NCBI GenBank assembly: GCA_038087875.1
Contig: CM075989.1
Coordinates: 186,001 to 250,000 of the forward strand
Direction of reading: 5' to 3'
Length of the DNA: 64,000 nucleotides
Origin: Malacoraja senta
Lineage: Eukaryota
The notes beneath the pieces were generated by a model. The model was not told where the DNA came from and made no database searches. It saw only the letters and a program-made list of their open reading frames with translations. Both the position numbers and the translations under genes were made by a program. Positions 9,298 through 18,295 of this stretch are shown here, one piece after another; the first letter of the stretch is position 1, and each line of letters begins with the position of its first letter.

Positions 9298-9398
9298 TTA
9301 CTTGGTGCAACATTTCTCCTCACCGAAGCACGCTCCGCTTTCCTTAAAGCCATCGGGGCAGGGGTTCAGACATGTTCCCCTCTGAAGGCTGCACTTAT
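9298..9398 (-). CDS. Beta-defensin-like gene, coding exon 2 (mature peptide)
   Basis: Acceptor ttgtattttgtgtcgtacAG| then (T)AT AAG TGC..., translating YKCSLQRGTCLNPCPDGFKESGACFGEEKCCTK*; spacing C-x6-C-x3-C-x9-C-x5-CC with G-x-C motifs. Confidence 0.85.
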
Positions 9399-9439
9399 CT
9401 GTACGACACAAAATACAAGATGAATTATCAGTTGCTAGA

Positions 9440-11145
9440 CAAGGGAACTAACTTTGAAACTAATGAAGCTTAAATTTCAGGGCCATTAATCCCGGAGGGG
9501 ATCCTGAAGCGACTTTAGTCCACATTGCTTAAAAATGTTGGGTCTGCTGTATGAGGAGGTGTTTAAAATAATAATAATAATAATATATTGCAATTCAATA
9601 CAAAATAATAGTTACAATTAAAATTAAAAGGTTATTAAAGTATCATGTAGGCTCGCCGTAAACGATAAAACAACGTTCAAATTAAGGATGTTTCATTCTA
9701 AATAATTTAAAACATTATTAACATTTCTGACAGAAATTAAAACTTTTATTTGAATTATTTATCTTAGGCTTGCCGTAATCGAAAAAAAATGAAAGCAAAT
9801 TTCGATGCTTGCGGTCATTGTAAAGGCCAACACTTTGGAAACTTTATGTTTTCACGAATAATCTTATAAAACCTTAAAATATACTAAACATATAAAACCA
9901 TTACAATAAATAATAACAATTTGAATAATGTACGATTAAAATACAGTAAAAATAAAAAGGTAATACAAATATCTTCTTTGGTAGATACAAACAGTAGATA
10001 CCGCGTCGTAACAACAAGGGGAGCAGTTGAAAATGCAATCGCAATCACAATGCAAACGTGAATCACGTGATTATCACGTCGTGATAGCACTCGTGATAGC
10101 GATCTGGAATAATTTTTTTTCAATAAAGTGTTCACAAGAATACAATATTTTAATTACCTCTTCTCAAAAATTAATGTTATATTTAGAAAAGTGAGGTAAG
10201 TGATAAAAGTGAAATAGTGTTAGATTGGCCTAAGCCTATTGTTTTTATGAAGATGTGAACGGAAGGAAGGCAGCGACTGCAAAGCCTAGGCTAATACTCT
10301 ATTACAAGTATTTATGAAAACGTTTTTTTTTTAAATCTCAGAAAGTAGACCTAAAAGTTGTTGACTATTATGGCATTTTGCAGGAGCTGTATTTTTTTTT
10401 AATTTCTGGATCTCCAAGAAGATGGGGGTTTTTAAACACACAGCTTCAAACGCATTGTTACAAGGACATTTTCAGATGGAACAAGTGGTATTGCTTCTTT
10501 GAGATGAGCTGACAAATTTAGGATAGAAGTTCTATATCAACTCTATGACTGTTTGATAATCCTGTTACGCAAGAGTATTGACCCATGTGAGCAGATTGCG
10601 AAAAGGTTTAAGTTAGATGCGGACAGTATTAAACGTATAATATCGTATTACGAAGATGATATGGACCACAAATCAGTAAACGAGTGTTATCAGTTCAAAG
10701 AATATTTGCACCTTACGATAATCCCAGAACACAGAAGAAAATACGCCATCTAAAATGCAATGTGCAGAAGTTGTTCAGCTTATTTATGAGCAACACCTAA
10801 TTGAAGTGTTCCCCAATATTACTACTACGCTTAAGCTGTACTTGACAATGCCTATCACAAGCTGTGAAGCAGAAAGGTATTTCAAAAATGTCCCTAATTT
10901 TCATCCCTCCATAACTCGGAATTTTTTTATTCACAACAGTGACTTTGACATGTGAAATAATCCACTACATCAATTTTCATCAACATTTGAAATGTGTGGT
11001 TGAATTAAAAAAAAGTGTAGTGATCCGTCGTGGAACAACCCCATTGAAGAAGATAACAGTGGTTACCGAAACGCCGTTGCAGTTTGCGAAGGGGCCCCCA
11101 TAACAGTTCAAGCTTCAGGGCCCCAGAAATGTAGGTCCCCCACTG
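9440..11145 (+). mobile_element. Degenerate hAT DNA transposon with C-terminal dimerisation-domain remnant
   Basis: VFPNITTTLKLYLTMPITSCEAERYF at about 10805-10885; subterminal agcttcagggcc repeats; 3' end ccccactg; left boundary approximate. Confidence 0.7.
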
Positions 11146-11196
11146 TAGCTGTAGGGAAAAACTAGGACAGATGAAATATTAAATGTGTTCGTCAAA

Positions 11197-11325
11197 TATC
11201 TATCTATCTATCTATCTATCTATCTATCTATCTATCTATCTATCTATCTATCTATCTATCTATCTATCTATCTATCTATCTATCTATCTATCTATCTATC
11301 TATCTATCTATCCATCTATCCATCT
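11197..11325. repeat. (TATC)n microsatellite
   Basis: About 30 near-perfect TATC units. Confidence 0.97.
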
Positions 11326-11339
11326 CGTTCACTCAAACA

Positions 11340-15027: not shown

Positions 15028-15330
15028 GGGAAGGGGGTGGAGGTGGAGAAGAGAAGTCAGTCAAGGTGTTGCTGTCCCGTCAGGTTGTGGTTGCGTGCCG
15101 TCTCCCATAGGGTGTCACCCTCCCCTCCGGGTTTGTGGGGGCTGGCGTACCCTGGTGTGGAAGACTGGAGGGGGCAAGGGGCAGTGGCATCTTTCCAATT
15201 GAGAGAATGTAAGTTCTCAACAGCCACTGGACAAGGCGAGAGGTCACCGGCCCGCCGGGAATGCCCCCCCCCCCCCCCCCCACCGGGAGCCGGAGCAGAG
15301 CCAGCGCCTCCGCCCCGCGCCGACTGCAAG

Positions 15331-17641
15331 TAGTATTGCGTAGGCTAATGGGACTGAAGGATGATAAATCGCCTGGGCCTGATGGTCTGCATCGCAGGGT
15401 CCTCGTGGAGGTGGCTCTAGAAATAGAGGACGCATTGGTGATCATTTTCCAATGTTCACTTGATTCAGGATCAGTTCCTGTGGATTGGAGGATAGCTAAT
15501 GTTATCCCACTTTTCAAGAAAGGATCGAGTAAGAAAACGGGGAATTACAGACCAGTTAGCCTGACTTCGGTGGTGGGAAAGATGCTGGAGTCAATTATTA
15601 AAGAGCTAATAATGGGGCATTTGGATAGCAGTAAAAGGATTAATCCAATTCAGCATAGATTTATGAAAGAGAAATCATGCTTGACTAATCGTCTGGAATT
15701 TTTTGAGGATGTGACAAGTAAAACGGATGAAGGGTATATAGTGTATCTAGACTTTCAGAAAGCCTTTGATAAGGTCCCGCACGGGAGACTGGTGACTAAA
15801 ATTAGAGCACATGTTATTGGGGGTAGGGTGTTTGGGGCCGCAACTGTTTACCATATATATTAATGATTTGGAAGAGGGAATTAGGAGCAACACTGGCAAG
15901 TTTGCGGATGACACAAAGCTGGGTGGCAGTGTGAACTGTGAAGTGGATATTAGGAGGTTGCAGGGTGACCTGGACAGGTTGAGTGAGTGGGCAGATGCGT
16001 GGCAGATGCAGTATAATATAGATAAATGTGAGGTTATCCACTTTGGCGGCAAAAACAAGGGGGCAGATTATTATCTCAATGGGGTTAGGTTAGGTAAGGG
16101 GAAGGAACAGCGAGACCAGGGTGTCCTTGTACACCGGTCACTGAAAGTTGGCGTGCAGGTACAGCAGGCAGTGAAGAAAGCTAATGGAATTTTGGCCTTT
16201 ATAACAAGAGGATTTCAGAATAGGAGTAAAGAGGTTCTTCTGCAGCTGTATAGAGTAAGAACACATCTGGAGTATTGTGTACAGTTTTGGTCTCCTAATT
16301 TGAGGAAGAACATCCTTGTGATTAAATGGCCTGTCCCACGGGTAGGCGACTCCATGCGGCAAGCGCAACCTAACCGGAAGCGGGGGCCGCGCGGAGGCCG
16401 AGTGATCACCGTACGGCCTGTCCCATGGGCATGCGATTCCATGCGGCGAGCGCAACCTTACCGGAAGCGGGGGCTGCGCGGACGTCCAGTTCGAGCGAAG
16501 TCCGTTGGAAGCTCGAGCGTTTTTTATGTAGGTGAACACGGGTAGGTGATGTTTAGGTTTTTATGTAGGTGAACACGGGTAGGTGATGTTTCGGGTCGAG
16601 ACCCTTCCTCAGACCATAGAAGACTGCAGAAGACTTCAGTCCGAAGAAGGTGTCTCGACCCAAAACACCACCTGTCCACAGAAGCTGCCCGATCTACTGA
16701 GTTACTCCAGCATGTTTGGTGTGTCCATCATCGGTGTAAATGGGCATCTGCAGTTCCTTCCTTCACAACAATTCCAGAGTTGACGGAGACGGTGCACGCG
16801 GCGTCGAGGCGGTGCGCGCAGCCTCGATGCGGCAGGCCGTTGCCGCGCGGAATTTTTGAGCAGTGTCGGTTTTTCGGAGCCCCGCGCAGTGTCGAGACCA
16901 ACTCCATACGGCTCCGGCGATCTACGTGGGACCAGCCCCGTGACCTCCGCGCGGCCCCCGCACGGCCCCCGCTTCCGGTTAGGTCGCGCTTGCCGCATGG
17001 AGGGCCTGCCCTTGGGACAGGCCCTTAAGGCAGTGCAGCGTAGGTTCACGAGATTGAGCCCCGGGATGGCGGGACTGTCATATGAGAAAAGATTGGAAAG
17101 ACTAGGCTTGTATTCACTGGAGTTTAGTAGGATGAGGGGGGATATTATAGAAACATAAAATTATAAAAGGACTGGACAAGCTAGATGCAGGAAAAATGTT
17201 CCCAATGTTGGGCGAATACAGAACCAGGGGCCACAGTCTTAGAATAAAGGGGAGGCCATTTAAGACTGAGGTGAGAAAAAACTTTTTTACCCAGAGAGTT
17301 TTGAATTTGTGGAATTGCCTGCCACAGAGGGCAGTGGAGGCCAAATCATAGGATAGATTTAAGAGAGAGTTAGATAGAGCTCTAGGGGCTAGTGGAAACA
17401 AGGGATATGGGGAGAATATAGTCATAGTCAATGCCTACTATGTTCTGTTGTGCTGAAGCAAAGCAAGAATTTCATTGTCCTATTAGGGACACATGACAAT
17501 AAACTCACTTGAACTTGAACTTGAAGGCAGGCACGGGTTATTGATAGGGGCCGATCAGCCATGATCACAATGAATGGCGGTTCTGACTCGAAGGGCCGAA
17601 TGGTCTCCACCTGCACCTATTTTCTGTGTTTCTATGTTTCT
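15331..17641 (+). mobile_element. 5'-truncated CR1, interrupted by a MITE (16326-17025) and a Rex1-type 3' tail (about 17420-17524)
   Basis: RT motifs; CR1 sequence resumes (ggcagtgcagcgtagg) directly after the MITE; gtttctat tail. Confidence 0.92.
16326..17025. mobile_element. PIF/Harbinger-like MITE, TAA TSD, about 70-bp imperfect TIRs
   Basis: TAA-ATGGCCTGTCCCACGGG...CCCTTGGGACAGGCCCT-TAA; inverted similarity extends through tccatgcggcaagcgc..cctaaccggaagcgggggcc. Confidence 0.82.
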
Positions 17642-18136
17642 AAACCAGGCGGTAGTGTACGTCGACCCCAGATGCAGATCACTGTTGCTGATTGTTGTTC
17701 TCCCGATCCGAAATCCAGTTCGGGTTTCCACTATACCATCTGGTGGTGTGTGAAAAGCTGTTCTCACTTTGATCTAGGACTCAGAGCCTACAGCAGCTTA
17801 TGTAATGCTGTCTCCATGTGATGTTATTAAAATACTTATTATGAAGTTAAACGACTCATTGTTATCAGTATTTCATACCCCAGACCCACCAAGCCCTGAT
17901 ACACGATTCACGCTGAGACCCACCGCCGACCTCTCCCCCAAAACCTTGTCTCTGTGACCTCCCTATCAAGGGATGATTGCACTAAAGAATTGAAACGAAA
18001 GGCGTCTCTGCGGAAGGCAGCCAGCGAGGGGTGGAGATGGTAAGACGTAGATGTGACTGGACGTGGGATGGAAACCACGGCATACAATGTTGTGGATGCA
18101 AAAGCAGGTGTTTACCCCACAAAAATGTGTACTTAC

Positions 18137-18218
18137 ACATCGCCTGTTGTTCTGGAGTCATTGCGGACGCACGCGCAACCAGCAACATGCCAATGAGAAA
18201 TAGGAACATTATCCCCAT
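18137..18218 (-). CDS. Beta-defensin-like gene, coding exon 1 (signal peptide)
   Basis: aagATGG Kozak context; MGIMFLFLIGMLLVARASA (hydrophobic core, A-x-A site) MTPEQQAM, then T|GTAAGT donor; phase 1 matches the exon at 9398-9298. Confidence 0.8.
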
Positions 18219-18289
18219 CTTTTGCTTGCTTCTTATTTAAGCTCAAAGAATGCGAGAAGATCTGGTATCTAAACTGAGAATTTGCTGCA

Positions 18290-18295
18290 TTTATA
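18290..18295 (-). promoter_or_regulatory. TATA box of the defensin-like gene
   Basis: TATAAA on the minus strand about 70 nt upstream of the ATG at 18218. Confidence 0.6.

Follow-up and report, generated by a model that had tools for sequence, protein, structure and literature searches.

Beta-defensins are the most widespread host-defence peptides of vertebrates. In mammals, their genes consist of a signal exon and, after a phase-1 intron, an exon encoding the mature peptide. Teleosts likewise secrete small beta-defensins with six cysteines, whose net charge is often low, and their genes reportedly have three coding exons, with the mature peptide split over two of them. In big defensins, a phase-1 intron precedes the beta-defensin-like domain, according to PMC7203481, and the human beta-defensin block at 8p23.1 is copy-number-variable and associated with large segmental duplications, according to PMC4035277. 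For sharks and skates, section 14 of a 2019 fish-immunity review lists only transferrin, squalamine and kenojeinin as antimicrobial agents (PMC6795676), while in PMC10707392 defensin is mentioned in the reference list only. A search of the open full-text literature, with subscription journals and automatic genome annotations outside its scope, returned no chondrichthyan beta-defensin in titles or the starts of abstracts. Here, we analyse a stretch of 64,000 nucleotides (the window; C13:186001-250000, on a contig of 25.5 Mb in a 1.94-Gb assembly) from a probable cartilaginous-fish genome. It carries a two-exon gene that belongs to the beta-defensin family.

The gene lies on the minus strand, where two short coding exons are separated by a long intron. 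It is probably a structurally intact vertebrate beta-defensin-family gene of an elasmobranch, encoding a host-defence peptide produced by the mechanism proposed below. Its features, in window positions, are as follows.

18219..18480, minus strand: conserved proximal promoter and 5' untranslated region (UTR), from a four-lineage alignment with 78% mean column identity
18414-18403, minus strand: CCAAT-box 12-mer, unique within the window; the CCAAT box is common to the promoter alignment
18295-18289, minus strand: TATA box TATAAAT, by direct reading, 77 nt upstream of the ATG
18218-18137, minus strand: coding part of exon 1, 82 nt, by direct reading and script translation
18136-18131, minus strand: 5' splice donor GTAAGT, phase 1, by direct reading
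9399..18136, minus strand: intron, 8,738 nt
9399..9440, minus strand: branch-point-like CTGAT, pyrimidine tract and CAG acceptor, by direct reading
9398-9298, minus strand: coding part of exon 2, 101 nt including the TAA stop at 9300-9298, encoding the six-cysteine beta-defensin domain
9185..9297, minus strand: probable 3' UTR, with its presumed 3' end near 9185

The start codon (ATG, 18218-18216, minus strand) has A at −3 and G at +4. In exon 1, this codon begins a putative hydrophobic signal peptide of some 19 residues, after which come a short acidic pro-piece and the opening base of a split Tyr codon. Judged by inspection only, the hydrophobic core of the signal peptide spans 13 residues, with small residues after it at −3 and −1, and a hydrophobic start is likewise seen in 4/4 paralogue lineages. 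At the other end of the intron, CTGAT is located about 30 nt upstream of the acceptor, and exon 2 begins at 9398, right after the CAG. Joining the 82 and 101 nt in phase 1 across the GT-AG intron gives a 183-nt frame of 60 codons, and the script translation of the joined frame has a cysteine spacing of 6-3-9-5-0. The frame is singular in its surroundings. A loose six-cysteine pattern, scanned in six frames, has one site in the whole window, which is exon 2; over 250 kb of the contig the same scan finds six sites, every one a copy of exon 2.

This gene had been proposed in an earlier note on the same DNA. Direct reading confirms to the base each feature that the note gave for exon 1 (TATA box, ATG context, 82 nt, GTAAGT donor), and the same holds for its exon 2 features (CTGAT, pyrimidine-rich AG acceptor, 9398-9298). 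Its phase join and 183-nt coding sequence are also correct, the script translation being exactly the 60 residues claimed. The note further spoke of an intact innate-immune gene. At the DNA level the gene is intact, while the term innate-immune derives from the family to which it belongs.

Several lines of evidence define that family: the Pfam profile, a profile of paralogues, the predicted fold and conservation among paralogues. The 60-residue product matches Pfam Defensin_beta (PF00711) with 27.3 bits against a curated cut-off of 21 (E-value 3.5e-6), covering positions 2-35 of the 36 in the profile. Seven paralogous exon-2 peptides of the same genome were combined into a second profile, which was compared with the PDB, and the top 7 natural-protein matches are all beta-defensins. 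Specifically, the best match is mouse BD-7 (1e4t; E-value 9.3e-6), which aligns without gaps and has the identical cysteine spacing, followed by bovine BNBD-12, hBD-2, hBD-1, hBD-6 and chicken gallinacins. The AlphaFold2 model calculated on the seven-peptide alignment has a mean pLDDT of 87.9 and three strands. Among 48,161 PDB representatives searched with Foldseek, only defensin folds match this model, and the top 15 are all beta-defensins, with E-values of at least 0.05, as expected for 32 residues. The nearest ESM Atlas clusters are beta-defensin clusters (score 0.86), which serves as a lead only. The beta-defensin identity put forward in the earlier note is thus upheld both by the profile score and by the predicted fold. 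The note had also called the 6-3-9-5 spacing typical of beta-defensins. This spacing does occur in the solved structure of mouse BD-7, but the commoner spacing is 6-4-9-6. By analogy with beta-defensins, the disulfide pairing would be C1-C5, C2-C4 and C3-C6. A big defensin was considered and rejected; such a protein has a hydrophobic N-terminal domain, and here the predicted signal peptide is separated from the exon-2 domain by only 8 residues. When the seven family peptides were compared with the proteins of 17-86 residues among 5.8 billion, none shared three 5-residue words, indicating that the family is absent from that catalogue in recognisable form.

The gene is not the only one of its kind on the contig; neither its near-identical copies nor the older paralogous family of the genome figured in the earlier note. 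Exon 2 is present in seven copies on C13, of which four are protein-identical, another two are 94% identical and one carries a frameshift. Four copies, 98-100% identical, exist of exon 1 and its promoter, and a sensitive search of the first 250 kb of C13 found no exon 1 beyond these. Each exon 1 lies 8.7-9.0 kb upstream of one intact copy of exon 2, and this pairing defines four full genes, with exon 2 at C13:38.8, 73.9, 160.3 and 195.3 kb. The splice donor is identical in all four. The array sits within the first 205 kb of C13, where self-comparison reveals nested segmental duplications; their units measure roughly 35 and 120 kb and are 95-98% identical. Telomere repeats were not found in C13:1-250000, and a subtelomeric location is therefore not supported. 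The remaining three copies of exon 2 occupy duplicated segments of about 3.9 kb without exon 1.

C13:58289-58384: exon-2-only copy
C13:100541-100636: exon-2-only copy
C13:179611-179691: exon-2-only copy

Two of these copies carry two amino-acid changes each; the third carries an Ala to Val change of its own, a shared Thr-to-Ile change and two 1-nt insertions. Judged from their sequences, they look like decaying relics and may serve as a neutral yardstick for the intact copies.

The four full copies have diverged by 1.2-2.0%, and the divergence is unevenly distributed. Variable columns number 334/9,100 in non-coding and 2/183 in coding DNA (one-sided P 0.034). One of the two variable coding columns is synonymous, the copy-specific variant being an A at window position 18201 on the minus strand, and the other is a Val/Ala difference in the signal core. 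Exon 2 has no variable column across the four full copies (0/101, P 0.023), whereas the three exon-2-only copies have accumulated, in the same 101 nt, 4 substitution events, all of them amino-acid-changing, together with the two 1-nt insertions.

Conservation of the cysteine frame in relatives, by which the earlier note had proposed to judge the gene, is found within the same genome. Three older paralogues on C16 have the complete gene: TATA box, ATG, hydrophobic signal, phase-1 GT donor, an acceptor ending in GTACAG, the 6-3-9-5-0 frame and a stop. Both the cysteine frame and the phase-1 two-exon layout are therefore kept in 4/4 intact lineages. The donors of the three paralogues are GTAAGT, GTAAGG and GTATGG, and their introns are 745, 755 and 2,768 nt long, compared with 8,738 nt here. 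Their PF00711 scores are 37.3 bits (C16:8557425), 30.1 bits (C16:10107022) and 24.9 bits (C16:10865932), and the net charges of the C16 exon-2 peptides are −1, −2 and +5. A more distant beta-defensin-like exon at C3:68350659-68350754 has the longer, commoner spacing and a basic proline-rich tail, and scores 22.9 bits with PF00711. Further weak exon-1-like or exon-2-like matches were recorded at C16:10274262-10276800, C16:10234626, C1:288049990, C3249:70180, C1276:3820-4043 and C2763:1158081; in the copy at C1276:3820-4043, the first cysteine is replaced by Ser.

The comparison of lineages separates a fixed framework from a variable peptide. In the seven aligned peptides, the only invariant columns are the six cysteines and one glycine, the latter being 1/25 of the non-cysteine core positions. 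Identity is 67-94% in the promoter and 60-93% in the last 60 nt of the intron, against 50-71% in the coding part of exon 2, and the regulatory values are higher in 6/6 lineage pairs. The acceptor region is nearly invariant in 9/9 aligned exon-2 regions. For the mature core, the ratio of nonsynonymous to synonymous substitution rates (dN/dS) is 0.34-1.28, calculated on few sites. A fixed scaffold and fixed regulatory DNA combined with a fast-changing mature peptide is the pattern that has been reported from other vertebrate beta-defensins.

The flanks of the gene share this conservation. A TATA-like box is present at the equivalent place in 6/6 aligned exon-1 regions. Upstream of the TATA box, at a distance of 10-30 nt, the element CCAACGCAACGCACC (window 18300-18330, minus strand) hardly varies among the same 6/6 regions; it is a candidate transcription-factor site. 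The 3' flank is also conserved with the paralogues and is 81% identical to that of C16_10.86M.

The intron can be divided into an ancestral and an inserted portion. In its 2.8-kb intron, the nearest older paralogue has counterparts of the blocks 12835-12389, 12373-11972 and 11182-11150. The remainder (18106-12836, 11971-11183 and 11149-9441), amounting to about 7.8 kb, has no counterpart in that intron and consists of lineage-specific insertions. It includes a weak RVT_1 open reading frame (ORF) remnant at 15796-16545 on the plus strand, opposite to the gene, and a (TATC)n microsatellite at 11197-11325. The last transposon-like piece has at least 30 copies genome-wide and ends about 50 nt before the acceptor region. 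The earlier statement that the intron is packed with transposable elements (TEs) was checked in part, and these lineage-specific stretches, the weak reverse-transcriptase remnants, the microsatellite and the multi-copy element agree with it. Because the whole 9.4-9.6-kb unit, intron included, was duplicated (97% identity), the long intron is older than the four-copy array.

From these features we propose the following mechanism, in which transcription, splicing, secretion and the defence function are inferred. A CCAAT/TATA-type promoter of RNA polymerase II would start transcription about 45 nt upstream of the ATG. Exon 1 would supply the 5' UTR, the signal peptide of about 19 residues and the short acidic pro-piece. 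The phase-1 GT-AG intron, probably inflated to 8.7 kb by transposon insertions, would be spliced out, and the complete six-cysteine domain would come from exon 2, along with the stop codon and about 100 nt of 3' UTR. After entering the secretory pathway, the 60-residue precursor would lose its signal peptide, and the product of 33-41 residues would fold into three strands held by three disulfides, the beta-defensin fold, and be released as a mucosal or epithelial host-defence peptide. The young, segmentally duplicated four-copy array on C13 would descend from the older paralogous family on C16.

A number of observations weigh against an intact, working defence gene. The intron is more than three times as long as that of any paralogue, and its insertions could supply competing splice sites. 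The poly(A)-signal-like hexamer of the 3' UTR is GATAAA at 9208-9203, a weak variant, whereas the older paralogues have the canonical AATAAA at the aligned position. The net charge of the peptide encoded by exon 2 is only +1, and a cationic mature peptide is typical of the family, if not defining; with such a near-neutral peptide, direct killing of bacteria is uncertain and strong membrane-directed killing is not to be assumed. Reads of four runs from four organisms gave only transposon pieces over 8800-11190 and no contig across the acceptor. A 207-nt contig from the reads of another organism covers 9281-9352 with 6 mismatches in 72 nt relative to the 3' half of exon 2, but the rest of it is a diverged homologue that keeps the C-x3-C stretch and has an in-frame TGA. 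These reads give no verdict on expression. When 1.84 billion representatives were searched by phmmer with the 32-residue domain, all 5 matches were long cysteine-rich proteins and none was a short defensin. Because the copies have diverged by so little, the open 183-nt frame is by itself weak evidence of function. Finally, the scarcity of coding changes reaches only marginal significance (P 0.02-0.03) and may also stem from gene conversion.

Some of these points are what would be expected if the C13 copies merely look intact, having been silenced as young duplicates by a TE-bloated intron and a degraded poly(A) signal, while the compact C16 genes do the work. The low divergence among the copies, GATAAA in place of AATAAA, an intron of 8.7 kb against 0.75-2.8 kb in the paralogues and the decay already visible in three neighbouring copies of exon 2 are all compatible with this. 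It nevertheless appears unlikely. Promoter, ATG, donor, acceptor and frame are kept in 4/4 full copies, and the coding columns vary less than their surroundings (2/183 against 334/9,100, P 0.034). Damaging changes are confined to the copies without exon 1, and the large intron was already there before the four-fold duplication. That the whole gene model is a chance pairing of an ORF fragment with a cysteine-rich frame can effectively be considered refuted: short exons can arise randomly in 64 kb, but the Pfam score exceeds its cut-off, the six-cysteine frames in 250 kb are copies of exon 2 only, and three diverged paralogues on C16 pair their exons in the same way, with the same phase and splice sites.

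A different question is whether the gene, if expressed, still serves defence. Defensin-fold peptides have been re-purposed in other vertebrates, as in platypus defensin-like peptides (DLPs), crotamine and canine CBD103, and the present fold could act as a receptor ligand or chemoattractant, as a reproductive-tract peptide or as a component of a sting or venom gland. The net charge of +1, with paralogues ranging from −2 to +5, the fast change of the mature exon on a conserved scaffold and the recent amplification in copy number would suit such a role. The data indicate no particular alternative target or tissue, however, bony fishes have beta-defensins of low charge that serve antimicrobial or immune roles, and the nearest matches in both sequence and fold are ordinary host-defence beta-defensins. 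We regard re-purposing as improbable, somewhat more so than a silent duplicate, and favour the intact two-exon gene with a host-defence product.

The assignment of the host relies on a globin marker. An alpha-globin exon at C5:73999216-73999428, compared with the PDB, gives 86 bits with 1cg5, 70 with 1gcv and 63 with 3mkb; all other natural single-chain haemoglobins give at most 52 bits, and engineered tandem human di-alpha chains score higher because they are matched twice. We take 1cg5 to be the haemoglobin of the stingray Dasyatis akajei. A reference to Chong et al. 1999 in PMC5638460 fits this identity. According to PMC3795541, the haemoglobins 1gcv and 3mkb come from the shark Mustelus griseus and the shortfin mako, respectively. 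The exon is closest to three elasmobranch haemoglobins, in line with the probable cartilaginous-fish genome of the earlier note, and this supports a cartilaginous-fish host that would be nearer to a ray than to a shark. A search of the genome for beta-keratin PF02422, a reptile and bird marker, gave no match, which is not proof of absence. The globin cluster at C5:73781333-74001875 has at least 7 exon-2 matches within 220 kb, and one of them is closest to cytoglobin and not to haemoglobin chains. Repeat matches on contig C1 extend beyond 373 Mb, making one sequence about one fifth of the 1.94-Gb assembly. Such a share in one sequence is unexpected for an elasmobranch karyotype.

The window also contains repeats. 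ORFs of retrotransposons of the long interspersed nuclear element (LINE) type are located as follows.

21021-24056, plus strand: LINE-type retrotransposon ORF
25846-28329, plus strand: LINE-type retrotransposon ORF
53560-55959, minus strand: LINE-type retrotransposon ORF
47104-48246, minus strand: LINE-type retrotransposon ORF

Among them, an endonuclease ORF precedes a reverse-transcriptase ORF; an open reverse-transcriptase ORF has 827 residues and another has 799. Even the best database relatives share only about 50% identity with the 827-residue ORF; those with a name come from teleosts, which is uninformative on the taxon. A repeat with a 29-bp unit occurs twice, at 33270-33333 and 37186-37249, 3.9 kb apart, and flanks ORFs of 581 and 461 residues, the latter with a weak reverse-transcriptase match; judging from this arrangement, the segment is possibly a retroelement bounded by terminal repeats. 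At 43120-43780, about 20 copies of a 33-bp unit form a satellite whose higher-order period is 255 bp, and a (GT)n array of 181 units (44124-44485) adjoins it. Neither Rfam families nor tRNAs were found in the 64-kb window.

The gene belongs to a known family in a lineage in which beta-defensins seem undescribed, and no new mechanism is involved. An intact elasmobranch beta-defensin family would fill a gap at the base of the jawed vertebrates and, as an outgroup, would help to decide between two and three exons in the ancestral gene. Many mammalian defensins fail in fluid that is about 1 osmolar and rich in urea, and the elasmobranch peptides would be natural ones that must fold and act in it. 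The locus also illustrates how genes with short exons and long transposon-filled introns can escape protein catalogues.

More tentatively, and with less confidence than in the gene itself, the locus and its paralogues could represent the first beta-defensin multigene family to be documented in cartilaginous fishes, made up of four or more intact lineages, a young array of four copies and the exon on C3. Its C13 branch would be recently amplified, nearly uncharged and still under selection, maybe in a non-killing role in urea-rich fluids of high osmolarity. If this is true, the uniform two-exon layout, which matches that of mammals and the last exon of big defensins and not the three-exon genes of teleosts, would place a two-exon architecture at the base of the jawed vertebrates.

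Compared with known systems, the locus is closest to the beta-defensins of mammals. The cysteine spacing is identical to that of mouse BD-7 in an ungapped alignment with the paralogue profile, and the predicted fold superposes on human hBD-1 (2nlb, 1e4s) with TMq 0.71 and a root-mean-square deviation of 1.5 Å over 32 columns. The six-cysteine motif ending in CC is common to both, and the two exons have the same roles as in the mammalian genes. In contrast, identity to these mammalian beta-defensins is only about 37-41%, they are strongly cationic, and here the host is a cartilaginous fish and the intron is expanded by transposons. Crocodile CpoBD13 (7t9q) gives a higher TMq of 0.81 at 32% identity, but it is a reptile protein from which no functional inference can be transferred. 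Unlike in teleost genes, the whole cysteine domain is encoded in one exon. Invertebrate big defensins differ in their hydrophobic N-terminal domain, which is lacking in the 60-residue precursor. At the level of the locus, the human 8p23.1 block is similar in that its genes lie in young segmental duplications, which here are nested, 95-98% identical and hold four full copies; in detail, neither the repeat unit nor the genes are related.

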